Below, one piece after another: positions 1,674 to 32,530 of a DNA stretch of 64,000 nucleotides; position 1 is the first letter of the stretch; every line of letters starts with the position of its first letter. A program made the position numbers and the translations under genes. The stretch is from an uncultured Bacteroidales bacterium (GTDB lineage Bacteria; Bacteroidota; Bacteroidia; Bacteroidales; Bacteroidaceae), in the NCBI GenBank assembly GCA_937876995.1, contig CALEFD010000019.1, positions 7,858 to 71,857 on the forward strand, written 5' to 3'. A model generated the notes under the pieces. It searched no databases. It saw only the letters and a list, made by a program, of their open reading frames with translations, and had not been told where the DNA came from.

Positions 1674-1683
1674 GATATTTGGT

Positions 1684-5656: not shown

Positions 5657-5668
5657 TACTTTAGCACT

Positions 5669-7525: not shown

Positions 7526-7531
7526 ACAACA

Positions 7532-7558
7532 TTCCCCCGAAAGTTAATTTCGAGGGAA
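7532..7558. terminator. Hairpin between convergent operons (candidate bidirectional terminator)
   Basis: TTCCCCCGAAA (7532-7542), loop GTTAA, TTTCGAGGGAA (7548-7558). This gives an 11-bp stem with one mismatch, located between the stop at 7525 (+) and the stop at 7596 (-). Confidence 0.5.
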
Positions 7559-7595
7559 CGTCCGCAATTGGAATAATTTTGTACAATACTATATA

Positions 7596-10500
7596 TTACA
7601 TCATCACTTTCTTTCTGTTCACTATATAAACGCCGGTAGCATTTACAGGAACTTTTACTGTTGCACCCGGAGCAACATCTACCCTTGCTATAATCTGTCC
7701 CGATGTTGAATATACTGTAACCACTGTTTCAAAATCAAGTGATGATTCTATATAAATCACATGATTCTTTCCATATATATTCAAACCTCTCAACGGAGCC
7801 TGTTCTGCTATATAATCAGCATCACCACCTATTGGAATATATTCAAGAACATCGCCTCTGGTTGGAGCACCCTGGCTGTTTGTTTTCAAATATACTCGGA
7901 ACGGCACAGCAGCCTCTGTGTTATCACTTGATACAGCAAAACCTGAACCGTTTGCATCTATCTTATAGAAAGAACCTGTTTCGGCTGCAGGTGTATTCAA
8001 ATAGCTACCATATAATATATATCCATTTCTATCAGAAGTTAAATCAGATGGATCATATATATCAATATTTTGTTCCTCTTTTGAAACGTAGGTAACTACC
8101 TGAGCGTCCAATTTAACAGGAGCAGGAGTAGCAGTATTCTCTGCCTTAAAATTGCCGGACATATCAAATTCATAATATGCAACACCCGGATAAGCCACTA
8201 TATATGGAACATTCATTGTTGTCCAGATATAATCGCTATAATTACGTGTTGTATTATAATATTCAAAATAGTCGTCAGCATTTGCATCGTCCCTGTTATT
8301 CTTATTGTAATATGTATCGTACAGGAAGCTGTTGCTTACTGCATTATCACCAGATTCGTATCTTGAGTCATAACCTGCATCTCCTGCATTTGACATAGGA
8401 CGTACAAACTTCGCCATCTTCTCAGCACCTGCTGTCTCTACACCGGTGAATCCACGCAACCAGTATTCGTGTCCCTTATCTGAATCACCATAGAAGTGAG
8501 TTATTTCACCCTTGTCCTGTGTAGTCACCAGATCGGCAGTAAATGGCAGTATCAAACCTTCCCAACCATCTGTACTGCTGTTTGCATAATAAGCAGGTCT
8601 GCGCTGATACCACATATAGTAACCCTTACTGAAACTATATTCCTTTGGTGCTGCAAAGTTCTGCTTATCAACCAGGAATTGGCTTGTAGCTGCTCTATAT
8701 TCTCCTTTCTGCTGTTGACCTACAAGATGGAATAGTGGATATTTTGTTTCCTGCACTACATCTACTGTATTGTAACTCTTTTCAGGGTTTACAATCAGTT
8801 CCGGTTCATTCGCAGCGCTCATCAACACACTGTATGAATCTTCCTGTGAAGCATCGGCATATATCAGCATATTTCTGGTAAGTCCCTTTAGATAAATACT
8901 CTTTACTCCATCAAAATCAAGCCATGTATTATTAAATCCTGAACCAACTGTTTCTGTACCTGTAAAGTCTATAGCTGTTACATCCCTGTCTATAACCATT
9001 TCTTTATATGAATCTGTAAAGACAGCATCTCTGTTATAGTGAACCTCTGTAGCTACTTCTGTAGGCGACTGTACGGTATATGCAGGAGCACGGAATACAC
9101 GATTATCTGCATCCGTTACAGCATCTATCAATTCAGGTTCATAATCAATAGTAACATCATCTACGGTATTGGAATAACTGTATGTACGTTTCTCTATACG
9201 CATAGGATTATCATTATGATCCTTACCCTGCACCAGACCGTATGTCAGGTTCTGACCAAAGAAGATGTAATCATCTGGATAGATAGGAACAAATTTAGCA
9301 GCAGTACCTTTATCAGGATTTCCTTCTACATATCTAATTTCACCTACGCGATATGGTACTTCGCCCTTTTCGTAACGGAAATCACCCGTTTTCATTCTCT
9401 CCTCAACATAATCTGCATTTCCGTATAATGAGGATGGGTTCTCTTTTCCTTTAAATTCTTTAAGAGCAGGGAAAGCTGACACTCCGTTATTCTGTAGATA
9501 TGCGCCATCGCTACCGGAACGTTTTGTGCTGTTAGTAATGTCGCTGCGTTTCTGCTGATAGTAACCGTTCAGGTTATATGCTACAGTTCCATCTACAAAT
9601 TCACGTGTTGTTGCAGCAGTTGCGCCATTACTGTAACTACCGGTGTATTGCGTATTATTGTAATATGAATTTACTACAGAACCACCAGATGCAATTACCG
9701 GAGCTGTAGTTGGTGTAGCCGATGTAGATACCCAACTGTTATAAACCGCTCCGCCATTATCCGATATACCAGAAGTGGTGAATGAACCCGTCACACCTAA
9801 GTTATATACATTACCACATAACTTATCAAACAGTGAATGTGTCAAGCCACCTATTGTATAACCATCGCCATGCAGATTACCCTGGAAACAATTGTTAGAA
9901 TCTTCAACATCACCAAGCTTCCACTCTTTACCCTTATAGTACAATGGTTCTACATCACTCTGTAGTATAAACTCTAAGTTTTCGGCATACTGTATCTGTC
10001 CGTTATGTTTACCAACCCCATCAATCAGATGGTTGTTATACAACTCTATCAAGTAGTCAAATTCATTCAACTGAACCTCTGTACCATTTCTGTTTTCAGT
10101 ATATACATCATCATTGATATATATCTTTGGATTACGTAACATTGCAGGTTTTTGGGAATATGTATCAGTTATTGAATCCACAAACATATATTCCGGATGA
10201 TCCAATACATCCTTCAAACGATGATAGTTTGCCACAGAGAGTCTCACCGGACTTGAATAGGTTTTACCAAGATATGTCTTGGCATAGTATGCTATCCAGT
10301 ATTCATTCTGATACCAATAGAGCGGAGCACGTCCCTGCTGATATGCTACACCATTCTTATGAGCAAATGCATCGTGTTCGTTAGAGAATATCTCAAATCC
10401 ACCGCTCATAATTTCGTAAGCGCCCGGTGTTACAGTAGGTGTATTCATACCCAATACATCGCCGGGCAGTACGGTCTGAGGAGTCTGCAGTTCGCCTATC

Positions 10501-13500
10501 TTAGGAACGCCACTTTCAAAATGTACACGGATATTCACAATATGACGTTCTGTAATCTCTTCAAAGTTCACGCCCTCCTGATCGCTCTCTAAGTAGGTAT
10601 ATTCATAAACCACCGTTACTATTTTGTCTTCTGACAAGTCTCTTACATCGGCACTTCTTGGAACATACAGAGTTGATGTTTCAGTTGGCATAGTACCCTG
10701 CACCTGGAAACCTGTCTGCATATTTACCACGTGTTCATCGTAGGAAGCTTTTGTTATAACATCACCAACAGCTATACCTGTACCCTTAGTTTTTTCTGTT
10801 GTAGTTACTTCTGTTAGCTGATACTCTCCATTATCGGAATTAAGTACGTGTAGATTATTTCTATTCGTAAATCCATCAACACATACATAATATACGCCAA
10901 CCTCGGCAAATGAATACTGCATTACCGAACTTGCTGCTGTATTCTCATCTACTTTTAATTTTTCATAAACAGTATCTATCAATACCCTGCCTCGTGTGTA
11001 GTAACTATCGCCCACTTTGAATGTATTCTTAACTACATAGAATGTATTATCTTCACTCAGATGTTCATCTGTAACGTTTACCATTGCGAATTTGCGCTTC
11101 TCATTAGGCAGTTTTTCAAAATTAACATTATTCAGAACTACGTCTTTGGTTATTTCACTCAATGGTTTTCCATCTATATCGCTTATGTCTAAATCCGTTA
11201 CGGTCAAATTGGTCTCTCTAATGTATTTAGCGGTATAATCCACGCGCGTAGGACCACTGTATCTATTACCATCGTTTTCTGTATTAGGATCAACGTCTGC
11301 CGAAGGATCGTACAAATTTAAATTGCCATCAAAATTTGTACTTAACAAATCGAATGCATCTTTATTGAAAGTGAAATTTACACGTTCGTACGGTTGTACA
11401 CCCGCATATTGCAAAGCATCATAACTATTCGTTTCAATAAACAGATGACCACCAAACTTACCTGTTTTAGTACATAACCATGTTTTTGGTGTATCATTAT
11501 CACTGCCATCTATAGAGAAATAGTTCTTGAACTTCGGATTTATTTTTATAAGTTTTGTATATTCGCTAACAGGAATTATATCTCCATTGTAGCACCACTC
11601 CTCTTCGGCCTTTTCGAATGTCTGAATACACAATACCGCTTCCTCCAGATACTCTCTGACTGATGCATTACTTGATCTCTTATAATCGGATTGGGATATC
11701 ACATTACCTGCTGTAACATACATATCTATCTCCTGACTATTTTCGTCTAAGGTCTTGACGTGAATATTCTCTTTTGCTACGTATGCTATTTCAAACTCAG
11801 CTTGTTCTGTTGGTCGTGCTACATTTATATTATCTGCATCGGTAAGCAAATCCTGCTGCTCCTGCCATAGATCATTATTGATAATATCACCTGCATTGTA
11901 TATATACTGACCAAATATACCGCCTGTTACATTCTTAAATGAAGGACCCTGGATATAACTATCTTTTGTATCAGAACTTTCATAGGTTTCCTTATTTATC
12001 TGCATTGGAACACCGGATAACTGTGAATAATAGTCGTCCCATTGAGCAGGATTGTTCATCTTATATGTAAGCAGGAATCCTTCATCCTTACCCATATTAT
12101 TGGTAGGATGGAAGAAGTAAGATACAGGAACCTCCTTAAAAGCGTCCGCAGTTGTACCCTCAGGATCGTGAATCTTCACTTTCACATCACTGCTCTTTAA
12201 TGTCTCATACGCAGAAGGCAATATTACCTTACCTTTCTTATATGCCAAAGCACCAAGATCATTTCCATTTGTATCTTTTGTTTCGCCATCAATATTCAGT
12301 ACATCATCTATACATACGTATGTTGTCTTTGTAAAGAAAGCCTTTTCCGCTTCTGCAAGCCTGTTGTAATCCCAACTGCTTATAGGATCGTTTGTATGGT
12401 AATACTGACCTGCTATTCTAACAGAATCATCTGCTTCCAATTGTCTACCACCATAGTTCAAACCTTCGTAGTATGCATAATAGCTATCGTCAACACTTAA
12501 CAGTTGTAACTTACCATTAGCACCAGCTGTAATGCTCAGAGGGATAGATACCGATTCTGAATATGATTGCGGAGTACCTGTATAAGCAGATATTGTCTGG
12601 TTGTACAAATAGAAATCACCGCGAACATACCAATAGTGAGCCGGCGAAGTTTTATCACCATTATTAGGATAACAATCATCTACAATCTGTTTAAAACTAT
12701 GCACAAAGTTACCGGATGATGCATACTGCTCTGCATCACCTTCATAATTAAAGCGCTTATATGAAACGGCTTCATTGTTTGATTCAGCCAATGTTACATT
12801 ATTGGCTCCTGAATCTTTTCGTGTACCATGAATATTGTCTGCATAGACATAACCACCACCTTCGCCTACAGCTACATTTATAAGGTCAAGCTGAATAACA
12901 CCGGTAATTGGGCCATAATCTTTTTCTCCTGTCTGTTCATCTATATCCTTTACAATTTCAAGCCATACGCCACCGGCTAATGCTATTATATTTGCGCTCT
13001 TACCATTGTTACGGAACTTTGTACCGGCATTTTCAACTTTAAACGCACGGTAGGTTTCATTTTCTCCCGTAGGCTTATATGCATCTTCACCATTTTCAGT
13101 TACTCGTACAGCGTCATAATAATCTACACTGGAAGATACTGCTCCCAACCTGTTCACCACGTTGTATATACCAAAATAACATCCATGGTCTTTTGTTCCA
13201 TCTGAATTGTAACCACTTATTGGATATTTATCCTTAGTGATTTCATTCAATGAGAGTTCATTAAGTCGGTTAATTGTATATAGAGTAAAATCGGCAGTTG
13301 TGGTTTCGCGGTCTCTTGCACCCTTTAATACAACACGGCTGCCCCAAACACCACAGAAATCGGCACGCTGTATAGTGTTAATCATTCTACCTGCATATAG
13401 TGTTGCCAAACCGGCAAGTTTCCATTTACCCTGTTCTTCCGGTGGCATACTACCCCAAACAGAACCTGATATCTGGTCATCCACAACATACCAATGTTTC

Positions 13501-16500
13501 TTATTATTTGCGTCTGTATATTCGTGATTTTCCAAACAAATATACTTCAATTCATAGTATGCCTTTTTTCTTGGGTGCATTTTGGAATAATCATCGAATG
13601 TGATTTCGTGAGTCAGATTATGATAATCTGTACCATAGTTTGTAATATTCAGTTCTCTGTATCCATCTACAAGACTTAAGTTACCATCGCCATAGAAACC
13701 ACCTATGTTTTCTGTACTTACAGAGACCATATCACAATCAAATACATCCACTACCGATGCAGTTACATTACCAAACACAGTCTTAGCATCGGCCGTCATA
13801 ATATCGGTACCCTGAATTACATTACCACCGGCAAATACAGCATTACGTATGGTAATACCCTGTTCATCCATCTTAGCCCAGCGTTCATCATTAGCATACA
13901 GGGTATTCAAGTCTGTACAAGGAACAAAATCACCAGGATTATAACTATTAGAACCTATTTCAAAGTTTTGCAGAGCAACTGTAACCGGTGTTATCAACAC
14001 CTTGCAGTCTTCTGTCAATTTATCACTGGAATCATAATAGTGACCATCACTCTTTTTCTTTCCCTTAACAGAATAGACATAACCAATGTTACCGCCACCA
14101 AATACGTTACCAGCTCCTTCTTTCAGTGTCGCGTCTGTACCCACATTTCCTCTATGCAGATTAACTTCTGTCTTACCAAATACAAATCCGCTTGAATAGT
14201 AGATATTCTCTACCTCTAATGCTCCTGCTAAAGTATAGCTGAATCCGCGACCGCCACCAAATACATCGCGCTCTACTGTACCGCCATACATTGTAACCTT
14301 AGTACTACCTTCAGTAACCGGTTGAGTCCAATCTACCTCTTTAATGACTCCTTCATCAATCTTCATAGTAGCAAAACCTACTGAAGCTATTTCGCCACCA
14401 CCATATAATGAATGACGTATAGTACCTCCATACATCTCTACGTTGGTATTAACAGCCCAAGCTTTATCACCAAAACCACCACCATACAGGTTACCGTTGT
14501 TGGCAAGCAAATTCAGATCGTCCTGACTGTGTAGTTTTACGTTCGGGAAATATTTTCCTGTATTATAATCGTAATCGTAACCTACATAACCGTTATTCAT
14601 GGTAATATTGGTATTGGTTACTTTACCGCGTTCACCACCACCGTATGCAGAACGAAGAACTGCAGGTTTTCCCCAATCGATATCGGCCTCTTCCAATTCA
14701 TTATTTTTATTATATACTTTTTCTGATAAAGCACCATTCACTACCTGCTTTCGTAAACCGATGGTTACATCACTTTCGCCTTCAATATATCCCTCTAATC
14801 CGCCACCAAATACGCGACGCACCTTACCGCCATAGATTTCCAATATAGAGAGTACCTTTTTATCGGAATCAGAAGAAGACAACACTTTCATATTACCACG
14901 GGAACCGCCACCATATATGTCACCTTCCACTATACCGCCCAACAGACTTACGCTTGTTGCGCCATATACTGTAGCTGTTTCACCATAGCCACCACCAAAG
15001 ACATTCTCTTTTACTGTGGCACCCTTTTCAATTATAATGCGGGTATTTCTATATTCCAGGGCAGTTTCAGGGTCAGCATATACCCAGTGAGCATACTTTG
15101 TTGAATTAGTTGTATAATATTCATCCGCATCCGATTTATCATCGTATGCATATCTTACTGTACCGTCTAAAGCGCCACCATATACATTTCTAACTAAAGC
15201 GCCTTTATCCAGAGTAACCAAAGCATAACCTGTCACTGTATTTTTACCATGACCGGAAGCATAGACATCGGCATAATTATCGATAGATTGCATTACAGGA
15301 GCTTTTATCAGCACATTGGTATTCTTTGTAGCACGATACGATTTATTTCCGCCAAACAAACCTTCGCCTGTAATAAAGGCACCGGAAGAAGCGAACTTAA
15401 CATTTGATTGGCCTACATCGCAAGGCAAGCCTTCTTCAAAACCTACACTACCACCATAAATAGCCTTTACTCTGATGGTTGATGTTTCAGGAACAGTAAC
15501 ATTTGTTGTTTCGCAATAACCTTCGGCAAAAGAGCCGCCATAAGCATAACCTATATTACCTGCAGAGAGATTTACATTTGTAGTCTGCGCACCGGATTTT
15601 GCACCTGCACCATAAACGTTCAATCCCAGATTGTTCATTCCATAAACACTTACGTTGGTTGTTCCGCAATCGTAAGATATAGTTGTAGGTAAATCTTTAT
15701 GAGCAGCACCGAAAGTACCACCATATATTTCATCATAATAGCCACTTACTGCATCTACAGTAGTTTTCTCTACGTAAGAATAGTAAGCGCCACCAAATAC
15801 CTTACTAACCAAAGGTCCTGCACCATTTGTTACACGATCCTGATATGAACCTGTAGCAGCCAGATGAACGTATGTATCTTTAACATCAACTATTCCTGTA
15901 GAACCGCTGAAACCTTGTCCACCGCCATAAACAGCACCTATTATCTTATCCGTTTTAGTTGATGGCGATGCTATATGTACAAATGTATTGGCAGTAATAA
16001 AGTTTGTAGCTGTTTCAGTTACCGCTGTATTTAACACAGGATACTTATCTATTTGGAAGTTAGTATAATTATATGCACCATTTGCTCCACCGAATATATT
16101 TCCATGCACTATTCCGGAATAGTACTGAACCATAGTTTGAGCCTTCACATATTTATTACCATAACCATACTGTCCAAAAGAGACAGAGCCTATTACTGTA
16201 CCACCAAAGTCGTTTGCTCCATATACGTTATTTACAATATTGATAGGATTATCACTACCTGCACTCTGTGCAGAGCCTATAACGACTTTTGCTGTACCAT
16301 CAATATCGGCAAAACAGCTGCCACCAAATATGTCATAGAACTTACCACCCTGAACACTTACAGAAGCAGTACCGCCTACATTACCCTGCAATCCTCCACC
16401 ATACACCTTAAATGCGTTGTAATAACCTTCTCCTGGTTGTATTAGATTTTTATCCAGATTAATTGATGTACTTCCGGTTACAGCACCTAATTCACCACCG

Positions 16501-18986
16501 CCAAATACTTTTAGCACCTGAGCATTCTCTTTCAGATTGATGGTAGTATTACCAATAATTGTAGAATTTTCACCATAGCCACCACCAAATACTGATATTG
16601 CATTCGTAAACACATATTCACCTATCGCTATCGCGGTATCACCACTGTTATATTTATGGAGATTTTCAGAAATAATTTTCTTTGATATCAGATTCTGAGT
16701 TACATCAATAACAACATTTCCATTTACTACACCACTCTGATAACAGCCACCATATACATTTGCACCGGCAAGCACAGAATCTGACAGGCCAAGAGGCGTG
16801 TTTTTATTCCAATCGAGTGATGCAGATGTAACATAACCTTCAGCATCTAATGTGTCATTTAATTTCTTAGGTTCCATTCTGCTGGCAACAGTCATCTTCA
16901 GCTTATAATCACCTGATGAACGCTCTGTAACACCACCTACATATTCTGCGTTTATATTAGCATTTGCTGCAACAATAGCATTGTTGGAACCACCTACTAT
17001 CTTTTCATAAATGGTGATTGATGATGGAATTGTTACATCTATCTGCTCGGTTGTGGTAAGACTACCAACATTTCCTCCTAAATAGAGGGAACCGATATAT
17101 GTTCCTGTCTGGTCCGGAGTTAATTCCTCTTTCCAATCTACGGAGAAAGATGGTTTAAGGTTGACAGATACACCATCCATATAACGTTTCATCTGGTCTG
17201 ATTCTGTCAAATCAATGGAAGAGTTTGCGTCATTTTCATACCACGCAAGAACATCTGAACGAACCATCTGTTCACCATTACTTCCTAAGAACACACCATT
17301 GATAACCACATTCTTACCGATACGGAACTGAGTGGTTGCGTTTGTATCATCCGATTTTAGTGGAGCTGAGTTACCACCACAGAACACATTTCCTGCTACA
17401 TATAACGGATTTTCAGTTGGAGTGCCATCATCATTTACCGGACCTGCAATATGCAACAGTGTCTTTTCCACCTTTGGACGATAAGCATAAAGTGCATCTA
17501 CAGAAGAAGAACCTGGTTCATAATAAAAATCAGATGCTGAAGAAGCCTGGTTATCAGTATATCGATATGCACCGTTACCTGCGCCATAAATACTACCGGA
17601 TATTGAGCTGAAGATTTCAACATTAGCACCATGGTAAACAGTTCCGGATACATCGTTACCTCCATAAACATTCTTAATCTTACCTCCACCTATATACACA
17701 CGTGCTGCATATCCACCATCGAAAGTTATCTGCTTGCCTCCTACTGTGGTTGTATAAGTTTCTTTAACCAGCTCATTAGTAGTTGGTTTAACATCCGCCA
17801 TTCTACAACCACCATATACATTTTCAATGGTCATATATGCGCTCTCTATGGCAAGTATCAAACCATTTGAGGATGTCATATCACCACGGTTACCTCCGGA
17901 ATAGAGGTTTGTTATAGTAGCATCATACAGGTGCCATGTAGGGCGAATAGCCATTACAGCCTTATTGTTACCACCAAATACATTTGTAGCAGTCAGATTT
18001 GCACCATTAAGATATATATCGGTAGAAGATGTTACTGTTGCATTATTACCGCCACCATATATAGCATTGAATGTTCCACCTGTAACATCTACAAGCACTC
18101 TGCCCAATGTTGGTCTGTTTGATACTGTAAGAGTTCTTGTTGGTTCAGTGCCATTCGGAGCAAAATCCTTCAAGGTAATGGAATAGTTACCTTCAGTGCC
18201 AACATAACCATAATCACCATTACCGCCACCAAACAACGAACCTATATTGACATTACCCTTTGCACTTTCTGTTACTCGTACAAAGGCATTCCAGTTTTTC
18301 CAGTTTTCACCATTCGAAATACTTTGAACAGGTATAGAATATGGATCAATATATGGATTAGTTACAACTAATGCATTAGACGATATATTGCCCGATATAT
18401 CATTACCGCCATATACAGCACCAATGTTTAGTGCATTAACACCATTAATCCATACGTATGTTCTTCCCTGAATGTCTGCCATACATGCACCACCAAATAC
18501 AGATCCGGAAACGGTTCCACCAGAAATCTCTACATTGGTATTACCCTGCAATGCAGCCATTTTACCACCGCCATATATGTTATTTTTTACAGAACCTGCA
18601 ACCATATTTACATTAGCAGTACCAAAAACTATGGCTTCTGCACCTTCGCCACCACCATATACACCGCCATATAAGGAACCATTAAACTTTTCTGCACCTA
18701 TAGTACCACCTTTTATATTTACATTTGTAGTACCATACACTTTTCCGTCCTGTCCGCCACCAAATACAGTGCGGATTTGGATTTCAGCTCCATAAATACC
18801 CACTGTTGTGCTTGTCGGATTTCCTTCTACACCTACATTACCCGATTTACCGCCACCATATACGTCACCCTTTATGTCAAGCGCCTGAACAGGCATAATG
18901 CTTAAAACAGAGAGAGCCAACAAGAGTGGACGGAGAACTCTTGCCAACAAACCATTCTGTCTATTATTTGTGGATATTATATTCAT
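7596..18986 (-). CDS. Giant (3,796 aa) secreted beta-helix-repeat surface protein with a T9SS C-terminal sorting domain; putative pilus-associated adhesin
   Basis: Single uninterrupted ORF. N-terminal signal peptide (…LLLALSVLSIMPVQA/LD). More than 40 copies by eye of the degenerate turn motif [VILF]-[YF]-G-G-[GASNC] in the first ~1,770 aa. The C-terminus …VTVYSTSGQIIARVDVAPGATVKVPVNATGVYIVNRKKVMM fits the T9SS type A CTD. The gene starts 23 nt downstream of the last fimbrillin gene. Confidence 0.85.
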   Translation of the reverse strand: MNIISTNNRQNGLLARVLRPLLLALSVLSIMPVQALDIKGDVYGGGKSGNVGVEGNPTSTTVGIYGAEIQIRTVFGGGQDGKVYGTTNVNIKGGTIGAEKFNGSLYGGVYGGGEGAEAIVFGTANVNMVAGSVKNNIYGGGKMAALQGNTNVEISGGTVSGSVFGGACMADIQGRTYVWINGVNALNIGAVYGGNDISGNISSNALVVTNPYIDPYSIPVQSISNGENWKNWNAFVRVTESAKGNVNIGSLFGGGNGDYGYVGTEGNYSITLKDFAPNGTEPTRTLTVSNRPTLGRVLVDVTGGTFNAIYGGGNNATVTSSTDIYLNGANLTATNVFGGNNKAVMAIRPTWHLYDATITNLYSGGNRGDMTSSNGLILAIESAYMTIENVYGGCRMADVKPTTNELVKETYTTTVGGKQITFDGGYAARVYIGGGKIKNVYGGNDVSGTVYHGANVEIFSSISGSIYGAGNGAYRYTDNQASSASDFYYEPGSSSVDALYAYRPKVEKTLLHIAGPVNDDGTPTENPLYVAGNVFCGGNSAPLKSDDTNATTQFRIGKNVVINGVFLGSNGEQMVRSDVLAWYENDANSSIDLTESDQMKRYMDGVSVNLKPSFSVDWKEELTPDQTGTYIGSLYLGGNVGSLTTTEQIDVTIPSSITIYEKIVGGSNNAIVAANANINAEYVGGVTERSSGDYKLKMTVASRMEPKKLNDTLDAEGYVTSASLDWNKNTPLGLSDSVLAGANVYGGCYQSGVVNGNVVIDVTQNLISKKIISENLHKYNSGDTAIAIGEYVFTNAISVFGGGYGENSTIIGNTTINLKENAQVLKVFGGGELGAVTGSTSINLDKNLIQPGEGYYNAFKVYGGGLQGNVGGTASVSVQGGKFYDIFGGSCFADIDGTAKVVIGSAQSAGSDNPINIVNNVYGANDFGGTVIGSVSFGQYGYGNKYVKAQTMVQYYSGIVHGNIFGGANGAYNYTNFQIDKYPVLNTAVTETATNFITANTFVHIASPSTKTDKIIGAVYGGGQGFSGSTGIVDVKDTYVHLAATGSYQDRVTNGAGPLVSKVFGGAYYSYVEKTTVDAVSGYYDEIYGGTFGAAHKDLPTTISYDCGTTNVSVYGMNNLGLNVYGAGAKSGAQTTNVNLSAGNIGYAYGGSFAEGYCETTNVTVPETSTIRVKAIYGGSVGFEEGLPCDVGQSNVKFASSGAFITGEGLFGGNKSYRATKNTNVLIKAPVMQSIDNYADVYASGHGKNTVTGYALVTLDKGALVRNVYGGALDGTVRYAYDDKSDADEYYTTNSTKYAHWVYADPETALEYRNTRIIIEKGATVKENVFGGGYGETATVYGATSVSLLGGIVEGDIYGGGSRGNMKVLSSSDSDKKVLSILEIYGGKVRRVFGGGLEGYIEGESDVTIGLRKQVVNGALSEKVYNKNNELEEADIDWGKPAVLRSAYGGGERGKVTNTNITMNNGYVGYDYDYNTGKYFPNVKLHSQDDLNLLANNGNLYGGGFGDKAWAVNTNVEMYGGTIRHSLYGGGEIASVGFATMKIDEGVIKEVDWTQPVTEGSTKVTMYGGTVERDVFGGGRGFSYTLAGALEVENIYYSSGFVFGKTEVNLHRGNVGTDATLKEGAGNVFGGGNIGYVYSVKGKKKSDGHYYDSSDKLTEDCKVLITPVTVALQNFEIGSNSYNPGDFVPCTDLNTLYANDERWAKMDEQGITIRNAVFAGGNVIQGTDIMTADAKTVFGNVTASVVDVFDCDMVSVSTENIGGFYGDGNLSLVDGYRELNITNYGTDYHNLTHEITFDDYSKMHPRKKAYYELKYICLENHEYTDANNKKHWYVVDDQISGSVWGSMPPEEQGKWKLAGLATLYAGRMINTIQRADFCGVWGSRVVLKGARDRETTTADFTLYTINRLNELSLNEITKDKYPISGYNSDGTKDHGCYFGIYNVVNRLGAVSSSVDYYDAVRVTENGEDAYKPTGENETYRAFKVENAGTKFRNNGKSANIIALAGGVWLEIVKDIDEQTGEKDYGPITGVIQLDLINVAVGEGGGYVYADNIHGTRKDSGANNVTLAESNNEAVSYKRFNYEGDAEQYASSGNFVHSFKQIVDDCYPNNGDKTSPAHYWYVRGDFYLYNQTISAYTGTPQSYSESVSIPLSITAGANGKLQLLSVDDSYYAYYEGLNYGGRQLEADDSVRIAGQYYHTNDPISSWDYNRLAEAEKAFFTKTTYVCIDDVLNIDGETKDTNGNDLGALAYKKGKVILPSAYETLKSSDVKVKIHDPEGTTADAFKEVPVSYFFHPTNNMGKDEGFLLTYKMNNPAQWDDYYSQLSGVPMQINKETYESSDTKDSYIQGPSFKNVTGGIFGQYIYNAGDIINNDLWQEQQDLLTDADNINVARPTEQAEFEIAYVAKENIHVKTLDENSQEIDMYVTAGNVISQSDYKRSSNASVREYLEEAVLCIQTFEKAEEEWCYNGDIIPVSEYTKLIKINPKFKNYFSIDGSDNDTPKTWLCTKTGKFGGHLFIETNSYDALQYAGVQPYERVNFTFNKDAFDLLSTNFDGNLNLYDPSADVDPNTENDGNRYSGPTRVDYTAKYIRETNLTVTDLDISDIDGKPLSEITKDVVLNNVNFEKLPNEKRKFAMVNVTDEHLSEDNTFYVVKNTFKVGDSYYTRGRVLIDTVYEKLKVDENTAASSVMQYSFAEVGVYYVCVDGFTNRNNLHVLNSDNGEYQLTEVTTTEKTKGTGIAVGDVITKASYDEHVVNMQTGFQVQGTMPTETSTLYVPRSADVRDLSEDKIVTVVYEYTYLESDQEGVNFEEITERHIVNIRVHFESGVPKIGELQTPQTVLPGDVLGMNTPTVTPGAYEIMSGGFEIFSNEHDAFAHKNGVAYQQGRAPLYWYQNEYWIAYYAKTYLGKTYSSPVRLSVANYHRLKDVLDHPEYMFVDSITDTYSQKPAMLRNPKIYINDDVYTENRNGTEVQLNEFDYLIELYNNHLIDGVGKHNGQIQYAENLEFILQSDVEPLYYKGKEWKLGDVEDSNNCFQGNLHGDGYTIGGLTHSLFDKLCGNVYNLGVTGSFTTSGISDNGGAVYNSWVSTSATPTTAPVIASGGSVVNSYYNNTQYTGSYSNGATAATTREFVDGTVAYNLNGYYQQKRSDITNSTKRSGSDGAYLQNNGVSAFPALKEFKGKENPSSLYGNADYVEERMKTGDFRYEKGEVPYRVGEIRYVEGNPDKGTAAKFVPIYPDDYIFFGQNLTYGLVQGKDHNDNPMRIEKRTYSYSNTVDDVTIDYEPELIDAVTDADNRVFRAPAYTVQSPTEVATEVHYNRDAVFTDSYKEMVIDRDVTAIDFTGTETVGSGFNNTWLDFDGVKSIYLKGLTRNMLIYADASQEDSYSVLMSAANEPELIVNPEKSYNTVDVVQETKYPLFHLVGQQQKGEYRAATSQFLVDKQNFAAPKEYSFSKGYYMWYQRRPAYYANSSTDGWEGLILPFTADLVTTQDKGEITHFYGDSDKGHEYWLRGFTGVETAGAEKMAKFVRPMSNAGDAGYDSRYESGDNAVSNSFLYDTYYNKNNRDDANADDYFEYYNTTRNYSDYIWTTMNVPYIVAYPGVAYYEFDMSGNFKAENTATPAPVKLDAQVVTYVSKEEQNIDIYDPSDLTSDRNGYILYGSYLNTPAAETGSFYKIDANGSGFAVSSDNTEAAVPFRVYLKTNSQGAPTRGDVLEYIPIGGDADYIAEQAPLRGLNIYGKNHVIYIESSLDFETVVTVYSTSGQIIARVDVAPGATVKVPVNATGVYIVNRKKVMM
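7599..7808 (-). other. T9SS C-terminal sorting domain (CTD) of the giant protein
   Basis: The last ~70 aa form a beta-sandwich-like CTD pattern (…IYIESSLDFETVVTVYSTSGQIIARVDV..G..VKVPV..TGVYIVN…) at the extreme C-terminus. Confidence 0.65.
9723..9893 (-). other. GLUG-motif-like module inside the giant protein
   Basis: CFQGNLHGDGYTIGGLTHSLFDKLCGNVYNLGVTG (nt 9847-9890 encode CFQGNLHGDGYTIGG). It matches the F-x-G-x-[FL]-x-G-x-G-x-T-I-x-G-L pattern seen at the start of GLUG-type surface-protein modules. Boundaries are approximate. Confidence 0.35.
13680..18880 (-). repeat. Degenerate protein-level repeat region (YGGG-type parallel beta-helix turns) within the giant CDS
   Basis: Recurrent VYGGG/VFGGG/IYGGG/LYGGG motifs spaced roughly 20-30 aa apart, from VYGGGKSG near the N-terminus to FYGDGN (about nt 13682-13699). 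The repeats are degenerate at nucleotide level. Boundaries are approximate. Confidence 0.6.
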
Positions 18987-19009: not shown

Positions 19010-20044
19010 TTATTGTACCAACATAACAGATTCTTTATCAGTATCGCTTAACGAATAGAGATATGTAGGCACTATATTTACATTCAGTGTATATTCTTTT
19101 GCACGCTCTAAAGTTCCGGTATTAATTAGTCTGATTGATGAATTTGTCACTGTCTGATCTGCTCGCACCAATGTTCCGGCTTTATCATAAACATCATATG
19201 TGACTGTCATAACTACAGAATTCTGTACTCCCGGCACAGAATAGAAAACACCGGCACTCTTTGCAGATGTATTCACCAACTCTAAATTGACAGGAGAAAA
19301 ACTTACGCTATGATCAACAGCAGCACCCTTTGACATAGCATACCCTATTGCAGAGCCATCATTCATTGTGCAAGCTATGTTTACACTCTGATAGTTACCG
19401 GCAGCAGGCTTTAATGTAACCTCCTTTATCTTTATTGTTCTTATTTTGCTATACTTTTCGTGAACCTTAAAGTTCAGAATAACCTTTGCCATTACCCTGT
19501 CCATCATAAAGGTTACATAGTTTCTGGTATCTTCATGCGACTCAACATCTATACTATATTTATTTTTCACCAAATCACCTCTTTTGTCGGAAGGAGTATA
19601 CGTATCATCTACTTTAGTTACTGTTTCTGCCACTGCACCGGAAGAGAGTAAAATCTCTTCTGACATTATAAACGGCACATTTGTAAAAGTGATAACATTT
19701 CCACTAAATGTAACACCGTTTCTCTTTGGTATATATGAATAGATATTGTATTGGGCTGGGTCCAACTTAAGTGACGATTCCCAACTACTTCCATTGTAAG
19801 TGACAGTACTTTCATTCTGCATACCACTTACAAACACTCCCATCGTAGTTGAAACCTGTATAGTACTGTCATAACCAGACAGAGCCTTTGTCTGAATTTC
19901 AATATCCTGCAGATATGGTGCCATAAATTCCACCTTTACACCGGTTTCAAATTCATCAAATTCCGATGCACAGCCTACCATAAGCAGCACCAATACCACT
20001 AAGAAAGACCATTTTCTGAATATGTCAACAATATATCTGTTCAT
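19010..20044 (-). CDS. Divergent fimbrillin-like lipoprotein (paralog 10, nearest the giant gene)
   Basis: 344 aa. Lipobox LLMVGC. Has the conserved [ST]-K-A site (IQTKALSG). Lacks both the F-x-H-x-L-x-Q motif and the C-terminal EI-x-F-x-P-x-V-x-x-W motif shared by the other paralogs. Confidence 0.5.
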   Translation of the reverse strand: MNRYIVDIFRKWSFLVVLVLLMVGCASEFDEFETGVKVEFMAPYLQDIEIQTKALSGYDSTIQVSTTMGVFVSGMQNESTVTYNGSSWESSLKLDPAQYNIYSYIPKRNGVTFSGNVITFTNVPFIMSEEILLSSGAVAETVTKVDDTYTPSDKRGDLVKNKYSIDVESHEDTRNYVTFMMDRVMAKVILNFKVHEKYSKIRTIKIKEVTLKPAAGNYQSVNIACTMNDGSAIGYAMSKGAAVDHSVSFSPVNLELVNTSAKSAGVFYSVPGVQNSVVMTVTYDVYDKAGTLVRADQTVTNSSIRLINTGTLERAKEYTLNVNIVPTYLYSLSDTDKESVMLVQ

Positions 20045-20058: not shown

Positions 20059-21132
20059 TTACCAGTTAAATACAGGAGGTTCGTAAGTTGAACCTTCTCT
20101 CCAATCTTCAACCACCACTGTATTGATTTCAACCTTAGATGCTGTATTGAACCTAAGTGTTACTATATATTTTTTTCCTGCTTCGAACTTATTGATTTTT
20201 ACAGCATGACCGGTTATTTCATGATTAGACTGAGTATTATTTTCATTCTTATTATAGGTTATATTGAATGCCAGACTATGCGGATTAGCATCTCCACCAA
20301 ATTCAAATGGAGCTACCAGCATTTTTGATAACACCAATGGATTATTCTCAACTTCATTTGGAATCTCTGAATCTAAAGGAGAATTGATTAATGGATATTT
20401 ACCATCAGCATAGGTAACACTACTCCATGTTGACAGAGTATTATCAAGTACATTTTTAGTAAATTCTCTATCATCAACCATAACTGCCATCTTGTTATTT
20501 GAATCGCCCAGTATCAAAGAGGCAACTTTAAATTCAACATCTCTCATACTTGCTATATCTGCTTTCACTGCACGGATTTCCAGATATGCAAGTTCGTGTT
20601 TAAGTTCAAACTGCACCTTACCATTACTGAACTCGCTTTGATAAGAGCCACTCTTTGTATCGGTAAGAATATCTTTTGCACGCTCTATCTCATTATCTGT
20701 CATTACAGATTGATATTGTGGAATACCACTAAAAGTCATTGTGCGCGCTGCAAGAACTGTAGTCGGACTGCTACTAAATGGAGCATACGCTGTAAAGATA
20801 TAGTTATCATTATCACTCTTTGACCAGTAGGATACAGGTGAATATGTCCAGTTTCCATCTAAATATGTAACCTGCTGATTCTTCATAACAGGAGCTACAG
20901 CGTTGTTCTGCTGAATGTAGGCAGTTACACCTATACCGGTTTCTTGAATACCTGCAACATCGGATATTAGTGCTTTAGTTTCCACACTGCCTGTAAATGA
21001 GATAGGAATCTTTTCCGCAAAGTCTATATTTTCGCGGCTGCACGATGTTAGTATAGACACTGTTATAAAGAGCATTAACAGCGACAACAAACTATCTTTA
21101 TATCTACCTTCTTTTCTATTCATAACAATCAT
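20059..21132 (-). CDS. Fimbrillin-family (Mfa-like / type V pilin-like) lipoprotein, paralog 9
   Basis: 357 aa. Lipobox ILTSC. ETKALIS site. Degenerate central motif (FELKHELAYLEI). C-terminal VEINTVVVEDW. Overlaps the upstream gene by 4 nt. Confidence 0.55.
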   Translation of the reverse strand: MIVMNRKEGRYKDSLLSLLMLFITVSILTSCSRENIDFAEKIPISFTGSVETKALISDVAGIQETGIGVTAYIQQNNAVAPVMKNQQVTYLDGNWTYSPVSYWSKSDNDNYIFTAYAPFSSSPTTVLAARTMTFSGIPQYQSVMTDNEIERAKDILTDTKSGSYQSEFSNGKVQFELKHELAYLEIRAVKADIASMRDVEFKVASLILGDSNNKMAVMVDDREFTKNVLDNTLSTWSSVTYADGKYPLINSPLDSEIPNEVENNPLVLSKMLVAPFEFGGDANPHSLAFNITYNKNENNTQSNHEITGHAVKINKFEAGKKYIVTLRFNTASKVEINTVVVEDWREGSTYEPPVFNW

Positions 21133-22235
21133 TGTGGTTCTACCATCTCTTCATTACCTGACCAATCTCCGTATGTTGCTTCAAGCGATATTCCATCCAA
21201 ACCTATACGGATATTATACACCAGTTTTTTCCCCATTTCAAGCACCTGCTTAGGATTACCCTGTATATTTATTGAGTAACTGAACGTAATAGTATATGGT
21301 TCAACTATAGTCTCATTCTCTTTCGTTGTTGTCTGGGTTACAGAGTATGTTACATCAAGCGCTGCATCCTGATTCAGAGTCTGAGGAATAAGAAGTGCTG
21401 CTAGATCTGTATTTTCATCCAGTTTTACAGGGACACTCTTTGGTTTATTTGTATCATCATATTCCAATTTCGTTCCCTGTCCCGGTTCCTTATTCAAAAG
21501 AGTATAATCTATAAGATAAGGAACGGTATAAGTATCTGACTCATCATACACATCCCATTGCTGGTTTGCATTTTGACTAAAACTGCCTATATAATACATA
21601 TTTTTTAAGGACAGTTTGTCTATGGTTATTGTAACCTGGTTTGTAGTACCATCTGCAGCAGTTGTAGTAAAATACTCCTGCGGTTTTACAGTAAATGCCA
21701 CCTGCGTAAGAGCATGTTTGAATGTTATTGGAACCGTTTCAGGATGTCCTGCATTGGTTATTTTATCAGCCAGTGGAATTGAATACATAAAATCAACCTG
21801 TGTATCATCAAAAGAGTCTATTTTATAATTTAAAAGAGATACACCATTTGGATATTCAATTTTAGCACCTTGTGAAGACAAACTTGCAGGAGAATATGCC
21901 TTAAAATCCATATATCCCGAAAGTGGCCAGTAGTAATCTACAGGAGTGTTCCACACTGTTCCGTTATGACTTACCACATTACTTTCTATATAGTTAGTCT
22001 GCGGTGTTGCATCGTCTTGATTTGTGAAATAGAATGCACTAATACAGAAACTCTCAGTTGTGAGATATTCTGTACTTTGAGTTATGGCTTTAGATGCTCG
22101 AGCCTTGTTAACCACCGGCTGGAAAGTCATAATCTCTTGCTTTTCTACCGGATTATCCAATGCACACGACAACATTAACAATGCTGAAATAAGCATCATT
22201 GCCACCTTATTGTAGATTCTGCACATTCTATTCAT
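21129..22235 (-). CDS. Fimbrillin-family lipoprotein, paralog 8
   Basis: 368 aa. Lipobox MLSC. ASKAIT site. ITFKHALTQVAF motif. C-terminal GISLEATYGDW. Confidence 0.6.
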   Translation of the reverse strand: MNRMCRIYNKVAMMLISALLMLSCALDNPVEKQEIMTFQPVVNKARASKAITQSTEYLTTESFCISAFYFTNQDDATPQTNYIESNVVSHNGTVWNTPVDYYWPLSGYMDFKAYSPASLSSQGAKIEYPNGVSLLNYKIDSFDDTQVDFMYSIPLADKITNAGHPETVPITFKHALTQVAFTVKPQEYFTTTAADGTTNQVTITIDKLSLKNMYYIGSFSQNANQQWDVYDESDTYTVPYLIDYTLLNKEPGQGTKLEYDDTNKPKSVPVKLDENTDLAALLIPQTLNQDAALDVTYSVTQTTTKENETIVEPYTITFSYSINIQGNPKQVLEMGKKLVYNIRIGLDGISLEATYGDWSGNEEMVEPQ

Positions 22236-22245
22236 ATAGTTTTAC

Positions 22246-23310
22246 TCAATACTTACCTGCAAAACAGTCAAATACAATATCATTGATATCTTCCTGTTCC
22301 CAACCTGAAACCACAGGTTCAAAACGGATTTCGTTATTAGCTCCATTCATTGAGAATCCTAAATGATATACATAGCGTACACCTGCTTTAAATTCCCAAT
22401 TCTTGTTATAATCATACAGACTTACAGAAGCTTTCTGATTTGGACGAGCAGAGTAAATCTGACCATTCAGAGTGAATTCGTCAATATCATAAACTACAGA
22501 TATTGTCTGAATATCTACTTTTAAAGGAGTAGGCACCACTACAAACAGAGCACTCTTGTCTTGAATAGATGTCATACTGTCTATAGAAAGATATCTATCT
22601 TCCTGAGTAAGATATTCATCACCGCTAAACAGCACAAATTCTGTTGTATTATCCAGATTTGACCATTCTCCGCCTTTGCCCGGTTCAGGTCCATCAAGAT
22701 AATCGCCGGTAACGCTTACACCACCTACTCTAACCTCTTTAAGCCTGATTTTACCCTTCAGTTCATCGCGTGTAGTTGCATCGCGTGCAGTAACTACCAC
22801 CTGACTGGAAATATGCTTGAATACCATCTTTACAATTGGCATTTCTGTAGCTATCTGGTCATTTGTAGTTGCTACCAAAGGATCGGCCTGTTCACCTATA
22901 GCACTGCCCAAATTTACATTTGTAAGGTTCCATCTGAATGTCTCATTGACCATTTTCAGTTCTGCATTATCGGCGCTATACGGATAGTATGCGTAGAAAT
23001 CTACAGTTCCTTTTTCCGGCCAAAGATAAACATTGTCGCTCGCCGCTTTCCATTCACCCTCCTTATTCTCTATTACTACATTGTTCATAAGGAAGTTGTT
23101 TGGATTATCATCCACTATAGCAGAGACAGCAAACGATTCGGCTTCGGGGAACGATATTTCACCATTCTCCGATCCCCAAGGATTGATAAGCGCTTTAGTG
23201 CTTACTGTACTTGGACCAAATGTAACTTCTGTGCGTGGTATCAATAGTTCGTTCTGTGAACAACATATCAGCACCACAGCCACTGCTACTATTGTTAAAA
23301 CCCTCTTCAT
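22246..23310 (-). CDS. Fimbrillin-family lipoprotein, paralog 7
   Basis: 354 aa. Lipobox LICC. STKALI site. MVFKHISSQVVV. C-terminal NEIRFEPVVSGW. Confidence 0.6.
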   Translation of the reverse strand: MKRVLTIVAVAVVLICCSQNELLIPRTEVTFGPSTVSTKALINPWGSENGEISFPEAESFAVSAIVDDNPNNFLMNNVVIENKEGEWKAASDNVYLWPEKGTVDFYAYYPYSADNAELKMVNETFRWNLTNVNLGSAIGEQADPLVATTNDQIATEMPIVKMVFKHISSQVVVTARDATTRDELKGKIRLKEVRVGGVSVTGDYLDGPEPGKGGEWSNLDNTTEFVLFSGDEYLTQEDRYLSIDSMTSIQDKSALFVVVPTPLKVDIQTISVVYDIDEFTLNGQIYSARPNQKASVSLYDYNKNWEFKAGVRYVYHLGFSMNGANNEIRFEPVVSGWEQEDINDIVFDCFAGKY

Positions 23311-23378
23311 ATCTATATTTTAGAGGTTAATAATTCTCTTTCTTCTAAATATTGTTCTTTACTATATCAATTACCTGT

Positions 23379-24440
23379 TTAAGGCTGCTGATCAGGCACA
23401 TCGTAATCTTCTTTATAATCATCTTTATCAGCGGCATCTTCACCTGGATACCATTCAGCAACTGAAGGTGAGTAAAGAATTCTATCAGCATAAAGTGTAA
23501 GATTCAATGTATATTTCTTACCCATAGCCAATGCTGTTAAAGCGTCATTTGTACCGGAATTCAGATACACATCCTTACTTGTTGAAGTTGTAACATTATT
23601 ATATGTCATTGAGTAAGAGATAACCAATTTCTGCTGCTGATCAACCAAAGCTTGTGGAATAACCAAAACCGGAGTTCCTACTTCTGTAGCAGTTGTTGAC
23701 AATGCGCCGGTTACTGAGCTAAGTATATTAAATTCAGCTTCGTCATTAGAAGTTTCGCTCCATGAAGCTACAGCACTCTCTGTAACGGTTAATGTTGCAT
23801 CATCATTCATATCCTGTAGAGATATACTGTTGATTTTGAATGTAGCACCAGTATATGTATCTGCAACTTTCGCTTTCACTACAATCTGTGATAGTGCGTG
23901 ATTAAATGTAATACCTACACCATTACCACCATCTGCGACACCTTCTTCATCTGTTGCATAACCTACATTTTGGCTATCTTTTGTCAAACCGGTTCTAGGT
24001 GTTGAATACATCAAATCTACCGGGTCTGTTTCTTTGCCAGCAGCAACAAAAGGAATACTCAATTTTTTTTCAGCTAACGTATATGAGGCTACAATTGAAC
24101 TTGGGGACCATGCAACCATTCCTAACGTACCTGATAAAGGCCAGTATGCAACAGGATTTGAAACAAATGTTTTTTCAGTTGCATCATAAGAACAAACTGC
24201 ACCTTTTCCATCGTCGCCATTAATGTATATTTTTGTTTCTGAACCTGAATTATGATATGCATATAGACCAAAAGAGAGGTCTGAAGGATACTTATTTCCT
24301 TCAATTATTGCTTTTGAATTCACTGCTTTGTACTGTAATGGTGAAAAGCCAATCTCTTGTCTCTCCACAATTGATTCATTCTGGGTGCAGCTAACCAAAG
24401 CTATTGTGGCTAATGCTGCTAAAAATAGACTCTTTTTCAT
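23379..24440 (-). CDS. Fimbrillin-family lipoprotein, paralog 6
   Basis: 353 aa. Lipobox LVSC. QEIGF strand. NSKAII site. DLMYS. ITFNHALSQIVV. C-terminal ADRILYSPSVAEW followed by an acidic tail. Confidence 0.7.
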   Translation of the reverse strand: MKKSLFLAALATIALVSCTQNESIVERQEIGFSPLQYKAVNSKAIIEGNKYPSDLSFGLYAYHNSGSETKIYINGDDGKGAVCSYDATEKTFVSNPVAYWPLSGTLGMVAWSPSSIVASYTLAEKKLSIPFVAAGKETDPVDLMYSTPRTGLTKDSQNVGYATDEEGVADGGNGVGITFNHALSQIVVKAKVADTYTGATFKINSISLQDMNDDATLTVTESAVASWSETSNDEAEFNILSSVTGALSTTATEVGTPVLVIPQALVDQQQKLVISYSMTYNNVTTSTSKDVYLNSGTNDALTALAMGKKYTLNLTLYADRILYSPSVAEWYPGEDAADKDDYKEDYDVPDQQP

Positions 24441-24474
24441 AATTTTTCTGTTTTAGTTATCTCTTTAATTGAGT

Positions 24475-25596: not shown

Positions 25597-25611
25597 TATT
25601 ATAGAAGGTTC

Positions 25612-26667: not shown

Positions 26668-26707
26668 ATTTTTGTTCTTTAAATTTTTTCAGTTATATAA
26701 GTACTTA

Positions 26708-27703: not shown

Positions 27704-27750
27704 ATTATTTTCTCCTTATTATATATTATATGGTTCTATTTTTTCTATTT

Positions 27751-28782: not shown

Positions 28783-28787
28783 TTTCG

Positions 28788-29801: not shown

Positions 29802-29812
29802 ATCTTCTGTAA

Positions 29813-32238: not shown

Positions 32239-32303
32239 ATTTGTAGTTCTTGCCTTGTTCGCTTTTATATAACACGCACGCTCTCACGCGCGTACATAGT
32301 TCG

Positions 32304-32311
32304 CAAATATA
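32304..32311 (-). promoter_or_regulatory. Candidate Bacteroidetes -7 promoter box (TAnnTTTG) for the pilus-like operon
   Basis: Plus strand CAAATATA equals minus strand TATATTTG, about 66 nt upstream of the ATG at 32238. It is the only TAnnTTTG match on the minus strand in this intergenic region. Confidence 0.4.
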
Positions 32312-32497
32312 TGAAGAAAATCTTGTTCACAACGTGCTTAACGTCAATTTTTGGAGTTACAAATTCAATTTTTTTTCTAAGAGAACAAACTGCCAAAACC
32401 AAAATGTAAGCTATTATTACTATAAAATTTCAGAAAGCATTCGTGTGTTTTTTTTCAAATTAGCGCATCGCACTCTGTTGAATCAACAATAATTTTG

Positions 32498-32505
32498 TAA
32501 GTTTG
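32498..32505 (+). promoter_or_regulatory. Candidate -7 promoter box (TAAGTTTG) for the flippase gene
   Basis: Exact TAnnTTTG match 26 nt upstream of ATG 32531. Confidence 0.45.
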
Positions 32506-32530
32506 CAGAACCAATATAGAGATAGGAATT

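Follow-up and report, generated by a model that had tools for sequence, protein, structure and literature searches.

A probable surface giant that combines a rod-like repeat region with a type IX secretion-like tail, encoded at the end of a type V pilus operon of ruminant-gut Bacteroidales

How could one surface appendage be built from parts that leave the cell by two different export pathways? The question is raised by a 64,000-nucleotide (nt) stretch from an uncultured Bacteroidales bacterium (GenBank assembly GCA_937876995.1, contig CALEFD010000019.1, positions 7,858 to 71,857), hereafter the window, in which a run of lipoprotein genes ends in a giant open reading frame (ORF). This single uninterrupted frame (7596..18986, minus strand) encodes a protein of 3,796 amino acids (aa), 413.5 kDa and pI 4.8. 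An initial annotation had described a beta-helix-like stalk, a long non-repetitive part and a tail typical of a type IX secretion system (T9SS), encoded behind lipoprotein subunits, and this anatomy proved essentially right. Our analysis leans towards a surface protein that has rod-like repeats and a T9SS tail and that closes a type V pilus operon of ruminant-gut Bacteroidales. The protein is laid out as follows, with the evidence for each part in brackets.

7596..18986, minus strand: giant ORF, the terminal operon gene (3,796 aa; intact colinear orthologs)
18882..18986, minus strand: predicted Sec signal peptide of the signal peptidase I (SPase I) type, ~aa 1-35 (sequence inspection; AlphaFold2 helix)
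13617..18881, minus strand: predicted beta-solenoid repeat region, ~aa 36-1790 (motif statistics; AlphaFold2 model of aa 1-1000; Foldseek)
12477..13889, minus strand: most conserved core, ~aa 1700-2170 (68-sequence alignment)
10587..12389, minus strand: less conserved, non-repetitive middle region, aa 2200-2800 (alignment)
7791..10589, minus strand: beta-rich, multi-domain C-terminal module, ~aa 2800-3732 (homologs; AlphaFold2)
9567..9971, minus strand: GLUG-like stretch, ~aa 3006-3140 (family profile A1 against 3n6z_A)
7599..7790, minus strand: putative T9SS type A sorting domain, a C-terminal domain (CTD), ~aa 3733-3796 (TIGR04183, Foldseek, conservation)

The frame is a real gene. We searched a genome set with one member per GTDB species, using a profile of the C-terminal 997 aa, and obtained 341 genomic loci that encode a relative. 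The 80 loci that we fetched come from ruminant or herbivore gut Bacteroidaceae, Prevotella and other Bacteroidales metagenome-assembled genomes, and from the cultured Prevotella sp. tc2-28. Where the full 10 kb upstream is available (69 loci), the ortholog frames begin with a signal peptide and span 2,323-4,395 aa (median 3,877; 10th-90th percentile, 3,576-4,098 aa). The full-length orthologs come from at least 67 species-level genomes of ruminant Prevotella/Bacteroidaceae, and 67 of them align with the window protein colinearly from end to end (68-sequence alignment). A relative of 3,804 aa on record is 92% identical to the giant over a core segment (aa 1650-2200).

The initial annotation had allowed that the ORF might be an artefact of several genes. 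Two metagenome scaffolds are compatible with a fusion made by assembly or sequencing error, or with a pseudogene: in L003 (10001-21572) and L004 (10001-21863) the ortholog is split into two overlapping ORFs of 1221+2669 aa and 1474+2459 aa, respectively. However, the ortholog is intact in the GTDB species representative L023, which has the same N-terminus as L003, so the splits look like assembly frameshifts rather than biology. Because intact colinear orthologs are present in at least 67 independent genomes, including that of the cultured strain, and a 3,804-aa relative with 92% identity over the core segment is on record, we put the chance of an artefact at virtually nil. All matches to the giant in a database clustered at 90% are fragments of at most 1,727 aa, which lie at contig ends or frameshifts. 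We also considered the C-terminal module as a separate protein of ~1,000-1,700 aa and dropped this idea, given the intact ORFs of ~3,900 aa in 69 genome loci.

The giant is the last of 13 genes that share a strand (7596-32238, minus), with gaps of at most 68 nt between them and 23 nt directly before the giant. Given this arrangement and a strong terminator behind the giant, we read the genes as one operon. Its remaining features, from first gene to terminator, are these.

30922..32238, minus strand: DUF3575 outer-membrane protein, first operon gene (PF12099, E=6.2e-31)
29813..30916, minus strand: DUF5119/Mfa2-like lipoprotein (PF17145, E=2.5e-23; PF08842, Mfa2, E=5.7e-7)
20059..29846, minus strand: nine further tandem Mfa_like_1 fimbrillin lipoprotein paralogs (PF13149; paralog alignment)
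19010..20044, minus strand: last fimbrillin-like lipoprotein, the most divergent paralog, 23 nt upstream of the giant
7528..7562, minus strand: terminator-like hairpin with a 15-bp stem and a T-run, 33 nt past the stop codon of the giant

By sequence, the upstream subunits are parts of a type V pilus, namely a DUF3575 barrel, ten fimbrillins and a DUF5119/Mfa2-like lipoprotein that is a candidate pilus anchor. The ten tandem paralogs measure ~330-370 aa each, and all can be aligned. The Pfam scan covered eight of them (all except 25612-26667 and 27751-28782) and assigned Mfa_like_1 (PF13149) to seven, at E=7.7e-16 to 1.8e-28. A lipobox Cys is present in all ten and in the Mfa2-like anchor, which bears out the earlier view that the upstream subunits are lipoproteins. 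About 25 aa past this Cys, all ten conserve (S/T)-K-A, which is where type V pilins have their basic maturation site and where cleavage would be expected. Nine of the ten share the C-terminal motif 'EIxFxPxVxxW', with its Trp; the last paralog (19010..20044) has neither this motif nor a Pfam match of its own, and is a candidate tip or adaptor pilin. Pairwise identity is only 13-46%, which indicates that the paralogs are old duplicates. Their number is far above the three to five pilins of Fim/Mfa operons.

The link between pilin and giant genes is conserved. In ~65 of 70 related loci from different species, the ORF that immediately precedes the giant, in the same orientation, matches an HMM (hidden Markov model) of the ten paralogs. 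A sister genome (L086, GCA_045590075.1) carries the same operon of ten pilins and a giant at ~90% identity, and in the related loci L003 and L005 a DUF3575 gene again heads the operon, with several lipoproteins next. Behind the giant, on the same strand, 35 of 61 related loci have a second ORF of at least 1,000 aa (up to >3,300); the window has none. Loci with such an ORF include L010, L015-L017, L019-L023 and L030-L033, as well as L001 (7499-17452), L002 (5157-12080) and L003 (21569 onward). Where Pfam data exist, these downstream proteins contain Fn3_assoc/CHB_HEX_C_1 repeats or Peptidase_M26_N. At the other end of the operon, the 293-nt gap between the DUF3575 gene and a divergent flippase gene (32239-32530) holds a TAtaTTTG box at ~32305-32312, ~60 nt before the ATG; TAtaTTTG is the Bacteroides-type -7 promoter element. 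A search of 32238-32531 for an invertible, phase-variable promoter found only weak 13-nt inverted repeats and no nearby recombinase gene, and so lends phase variation no support.

The giant itself appears to carry signals of a different kind at its two ends. Its N-terminal signal, judged by eye and with no dedicated predictor, has a basic n-region, the hydrophobic core LLLALSVLSIM and a V-Q-A site; cleavage is predicted between …LLLALSVLSIMPVQA and LDIKGDVYGGG. Sequence inspection found no lipobox Cys in this signal. AlphaFold2 places a helix at aa 14-28 and strands after it. The predicted signal peptidase site reads A-x-A/Q-I-x-I-G-G (the slash marks the cut) in 42 of 68 orthologs, and the window protein has V-Q-A/L instead. 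Since the ortholog site leads directly into the repeat sequence, the rod probably begins at mature residue 1. Cleavage at A-x-A/Q would give the mature orthologs an N-terminal Gln; such a residue on mature exported proteins is known as the Bacteroidetes 'Q-rule'.

At the other end, a low-confidence linker (aa 3723-3732) leads to a tail that AlphaFold2 models as a small 7-strand beta-sandwich. The last ~70 aa had been taken for a T9SS type A CTD. Against TIGR04183, which has a curated cut-off of 23 bits, the whole giant scores 12.8 bits (E=0.087) and its last 130 aa score 20.7 bits (E=3e-4). At E<=0.01 the same model matches 27 of 34 family tails, with a best value of 1.8e-7, and two relatives are listed by NCBI as 'T9SS type A sorting domain-containing protein'. 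In the 68-sequence alignment, S3748, L3750, G3763, G3785, Y3787 and K3793 reach at least 94% conservation, and the last three of these define the final CTD motifs; the family consensus, GVYIV…KK..V, retains both the G-[VI]-Y and the K motif of the terminus. Foldseek relates the modelled tail weakly to 8gl6_D (probability 0.98, TMt 0.58, E=0.33), the RemA CTD in a T9SS substrate complex. Because of the family matches, the conserved motifs and the modelled RemA-CTD-like fold, we read the tail as a likely divergent type A CTD. The assignment has good support at the level of the family; for this sequence, judged by its score alone, it is borderline. Thus, the original call holds at the level of the family and of the modelled fold, whereas the protein's own score falls narrowly below the cut-off.

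Between these signals, the N-terminal half is built from a repeat unit of ~27 aa of the form GG..V.G.VYGGG..G.V.G.T.V.I, with 29-45 units in aa 36 to ~1790 at a spacing of ~27-28 aa or multiples of it. The turn pattern [VILF][YF]GG[GASNC] occurs 29 times in aa 1-1770 and not once in the remainder of the giant; chance would give 0.34 matches (maximum 3 in 1,000 shuffles). The turns are therefore confined to the N-terminal ~1,770 aa, as had been proposed. The proposed number, more than 40, is too high for that pattern: an HMM built from the 29 strict matches recovers 35 repeat units, [YF]GG gives 37, and only the looser [YF][GA][GA] exceeds 40, with 45. The repeats are degenerate at the DNA level, again as proposed. 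Direct repeats in the region are only 20-60 nt long, with 60-90% identity over the YGGG codons, and Tandem Repeats Finder reported no relevant tandem array there. Nor are orthologs with more YGG turns any longer (Spearman -0.21, p=0.09). The length of the stalk thus appears fixed rather than growing by slippage, in keeping with the 'stable ancient structure' of the initial annotation.

The predicted fold of this region fits the beta-helix that had been suggested for it. We modelled aa 1-1000 (from a 60-sequence alignment) and aa 2800-3796 with AlphaFold2. The N-terminal model (pLDDT 86.4, pTM 0.88) consists almost exclusively of short periodic strands. Sub-domains are inserted in the repeat region, for example at aa ~470-740, where the model has a partly helical sub-domain at ~aa 480-630. 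Foldseek returned 44 PDB matches for the model, mostly beta-solenoids (nearly all of the top 28), none of them significant (best E 0.17, TM <= 0.27). These weak neighbours include the passenger of the Haemophilus influenzae IgA1 protease, RsaA, RTX and serralysin rolls, Ag43, pertactin, tapirins, pectin and fucoidan lyases, a rhamnogalacturonase and tailspikes. The model supports membership in the beta-solenoid class rather than any exact sub-type.

The ~2,000 aa after the repeats are non-repetitive, as described before. In the best-conserved part of the family, a core at aa ~1700-2170, dozens of Arg, Asp, His, Asn and Gly positions are invariant, along with Glu and Lys. The core is marked by the motifs NTIQRADFCG..GSR, GA.DR, YTINR..E.SLN, LDLINV..GGG.VYA.N.H and DDC…AHYW. 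Searches of Pfam and of PDB sequences with its profile found no match. A phmmer search of 1.84 billion representative sequences with the core segment found 170 proteins at E<=1e-3, nearly all of 3,000-4,700 aa and matched at the same relative position, which argues that the core is private to the giant family. It is a candidate ligand-binding or catalytic site. The middle region has a mean column identity of 30% (alignment A5) and no PDB sequence match below E=0.2.

Conservation resumes in the C-terminal module, which has at least 172 homologs. The model of aa 2800-3796 (pLDDT 82.7, pTM 0.79) gave no Foldseek match in the PDB at E<=1e-3 for the whole module; we rejected its top matches, alphavirus E2 and immunoglobulin (Ig) domains, as generic beta-sandwich noise with TM <0.3. 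A BFVD search with the same model returned one unnamed match that is not interpretable (A0A8S5VQE1, 570 aa, E=1e-6, 330 aligned columns) and two weak ones, to phage-metagenome proteins with the label 'Secretion system C-terminal sorting domain'. Within the module, the GLUG-like stretch (CFQGNLHGDGYTIGGL…LCGNVYNLGVTGSF) is nearly invariant across the family, and family profile A1 matches the 'putative immunoglobulin A1 protease' chain 3n6z_A over it at E=2.4e-4. 'GLUG-like' was thus a fair description, although neither Pfam GLUG (PF07581) nor Peptidase_M26_N (PF05342) matches the giant or 45 orthologs. What the stretch shares with the GLUG/Peptidase_M26_N modules of Bacteroides 3n6z is a short block, F-x-G-x-h-x-G-x-G-x-x-I-x-x-L … LFG…C…N…G. 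All 3,796 aa contain no HExxH zinc motif (neither HE..H nor H..EH). Because both this motif and the Pfam matches are missing, a peptidase assignment would not be fair, and we rejected it; the giant is not a recognisable peptidase. Across all parts of the giant, Pfam, NCBIfam and PDB-sequence searches yielded only the weak CTD and 3n6z matches.

From the observed gene structure, operon, repeats, family-level CTD match and conserved gene linkage, we infer a secretion route, a physical attachment to the pilus, an adhesin role and a ligand, and these would fit together as follows. All 13 genes would be expressed from one operon transcript. Sec would carry the DUF3575 barrel, the ten fimbrillins and their Mfa2-like anchor across the inner membrane; once lipidated and moved to the outer membrane, the lipoproteins would be cut behind the conserved Lys and would polymerise through strand exchange. 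With its SPase I signal, the giant would also use Sec for the inner membrane; for the outer membrane it would use the T9SS, with the CTD as its guide. At the surface it would join the pilus, most likely via the atypical last pilin. The ~1,750-aa beta-solenoid, with an estimated length of ~17-30 nm (35-64 coils at 4.8 Å), could then serve as a rigid spacer on which the conserved non-repetitive half is displayed, presumably as a ligand-binding head for adhesion in the ruminant gut. The ~410 kDa giant would thus be delivered by the T9SS and would form an accessory or tip component of a type V (Mfa-like) pilus, a reading that we hold to be somewhat better than even.

Several observations weigh against this reading. 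The window protein's own CTD score (12.8 bits; 20.7 for the tail alone) lies below the 23-bit cut-off, and PF18962 matches two of 45 orthologs, weakly, and not the window protein. These results would also fit a tail that is a mere Ig-like domain, with export or anchoring by some other route, such as the operon's DUF3575 protein, which is encoded by a conserved first gene. We know of no precedent for a DUF3575 protein that moves a 400 kDa protein across, and the TIGR04183 matches of 27 of 34 family tails (best E=1.8e-7), the conserved terminal G-[VI]-Y and K motifs and the RemA-CTD-like fold make such a route very improbable. On the T9SS itself, the genes of the 64 kb window include no core component (porK/L/M/N, sov/sprA, porT, porU or porV), and the system, present in Prevotella intermedia, is missing from some Bacteroidaceae, for example B. 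fragilis and B. thetaiotaomicron (PMC5445135). Other points touch the link to the pilus. Sequence and profile searches found nothing pilin-like in the giant, and gene linkage alone is also compatible with mere co-regulation. Nor does the giant have a VWA Pfam match; the vWA domain is the part through which Mfa5 of Porphyromonas gingivalis is thought to contact Mfa3/4. The main rival has the giant secreted, freed of its CTD and anchored via anionic lipopolysaccharide (LPS) as an adhesin or coat layer of its own that is only co-regulated with the pilus. Such anchoring is the default fate of type A CTD cargo (PMC5445135), the giant has no pilin-like or vWA domain, and the further giant ORFs downstream in 35 of 61 related loci suggest a 'surface protein cassette'. 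This arrangement is possible, though we lean against it: the giant gene is tightly and conservedly adjacent to a fimbrillin-like gene across ~65 species, and the Mfa5 precedent argues for a physical or assembly link.

Alternatively, the giant may be a surface-displayed enzyme, instead of or besides an adhesin, whose substrates in the rumen or hindgut would be glycans of plants or of the host, either through a polysaccharide lyase- or hydrolase-type site in the core or with the GLUG-like module as part of a protease. Right-handed beta-helices host many polysaccharide lyases and hydrolases, and rhamnogalacturonase, pectin lyase and fucoidan lyase are among the Foldseek neighbours of the stalk. 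The many invariant Arg, Asp, His, Glu and Lys residues of the core, the herbivore-gut origin of all relatives in the 80 fetched loci and the likeness of the GLUG-like stretch to 3n6z point the same way. Still, no part of the giant matches a catalytic Pfam or NCBIfam family or a PDB sequence, HExxH is lacking, and the Foldseek matches all have E>0.1; we therefore judge an enzyme quite improbable. In a more speculative proposal, also improbable, the ten-pilin pilus would be a dedicated scaffold with the T9SS-delivered 413 kDa beta-solenoid protein at its tip, the conserved distal core would bind or cleave plant-cell-wall or host glycans, and the pilins might form a fixed-order heteropolymeric adaptor rather than a homopolymeric stalk. 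If true, the tip-mounted giant would be a pilus-borne fibre-attachment device specific to ruminant-gut Prevotella/Bacteroidaceae, a functional counterpart of tapirins or of cellulosome anchoring.

The remainder of the window is ordinary Bacteroidales chromosome, with capsule and LPS genes, argS, secDF, purT and a 2-oxoacid:ferredoxin oxidoreductase. Convergent with the giant lies a gene (5669-7525, plus strand) for a 618-aa fusion of a GT2 glycosyltransferase domain with Stealth CR1/CR2/CR4, of the capsule phosphotransferase type, which belongs to a capsule/LPS-type cluster (10-7525). Two adjoining, slightly overlapping genes at 46149-47538 (plus strand) encode rhomboid-family membrane proteases of 231 and 239 aa. 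Pfam and NCBIfam searches both came up empty for three plus-strand ORFs, 2750-4618, 51844-53553 and 60463-60831 (622, 569 and 122 aa).

Returning to a T9SS-delivered component of a type V pilus as the preferred reading, we can place the giant among known surface systems. SprB and RemA of Flavobacterium johnsoniae are very large, repeat-rich surface adhesins that are exported by the T9SS via a C-terminal domain. The giant shares their size, their repeat-rich build and probably a T9SS-type C-terminal domain, and its modelled tail resembles the RemA CTD. Unlike the giant, SprB and RemA are gliding-motility adhesins encoded outside pilus operons; they have other repeat types, and we detected no sequence similarity. 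A long right-handed beta-solenoid stalk or binding surface, as predicted for the giant, is seen in the H. influenzae IgA1 protease (3h09), Ag43 (4kh3), pertactin (1dab) and a tapirin (6n2c), the top Foldseek neighbours of the N-terminal model (E>0.1, low TM-scores). The autotransporter stalks among them leave the cell by type V autotransport rather than the T9SS, and no sequence homology was found. Tapirins, encoded near type IV pilus genes, bind cellulose and offer a functional parallel. The locus points to an abundant, unannotated family of 400 kDa surface proteins, with no Pfam entry and no solved relative, which probably serves attachment in the rumen and hindgut.

The operon agrees with Bacteroidales type V pili (FimA/Mfa1) in its Mfa_like_1 fimbrillins, lipobox, basic cleavage site, C-terminal strand motif and Mfa2/DUF5119 anchor, and differs in its ten divergent paralogs (13-46% identity) and the 413 kDa T9SS-type product of its terminal gene. 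The closest parallel is the mfa1 operon of P. gingivalis, in which Mfa1-4 are lipoproteins and the last gene, mfa5, encodes a CTD-bearing, T9SS-dependent protein (PMC8512630, PMC7835359). Mfa1-4 mature through signal peptidase and gingipains; in mutants that lack its CTD and in porU mutants, Mfa5 builds up within the cell, and the incorporation of the tip proteins depends on it; Mfa4 and Mfa5, which have no donor strands, are placed at the pilus tip (PMC8512630, PMC7835359, PMC13655056). Mfa5 is described as having a vWA domain with MIDAS (genotypes A-C), Ig-like domains and an isopeptide bond, and its PDB entries span residues 99-664 (PMC7835359). Like the giant, Mfa5 is encoded by the last operon gene behind lipoprotein pilins and an Mfa2-type anchor; like the giant as read here, it has a Sec signal and a T9SS CTD and belongs to a single appendage that needs the lipoprotein route plus the T9SS. 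The two tandem mfa5 genes of some P. gingivalis strains (PMC8512630) parallel the second giant downstream in many related loci.

The differences from Mfa5 are equally plain. The giant has 3,796 aa, with a ~1,750-aa beta-solenoid in place of the vWA domain, and its operon holds ten paralogs and a DUF3575 gene where that of P. gingivalis has three or four pilins. Neither the giant nor any of four family profiles matches the solved Mfa5 fragment (PDB 6tnj, 6to1). The giant would be a functional analogue of Mfa5 and, compared with residues 99-664, is not a demonstrable member of its family. The 'mixed secretion logic' of the initial annotation was right about two export routes and does not pose a new puzzle, because Mfa5 already provides a documented case of two pathways for one structure (PMC8512630, PMC7835359). 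What is new is a large, closed, unannotated family of ~3,900-aa proteins in an Mfa5-like role, its linkage to fimbrillin genes (~65 of 70 loci) across herbivore-gut species and the array of ten pilin paralogs. The two-pathway pilus design would thus not be confined to P. gingivalis: an unrelated, larger family holds the same operon position, and the locus offers a second, evolutionarily independent system in which to ask how T9SS cargo joins a lipoprotein pilus.

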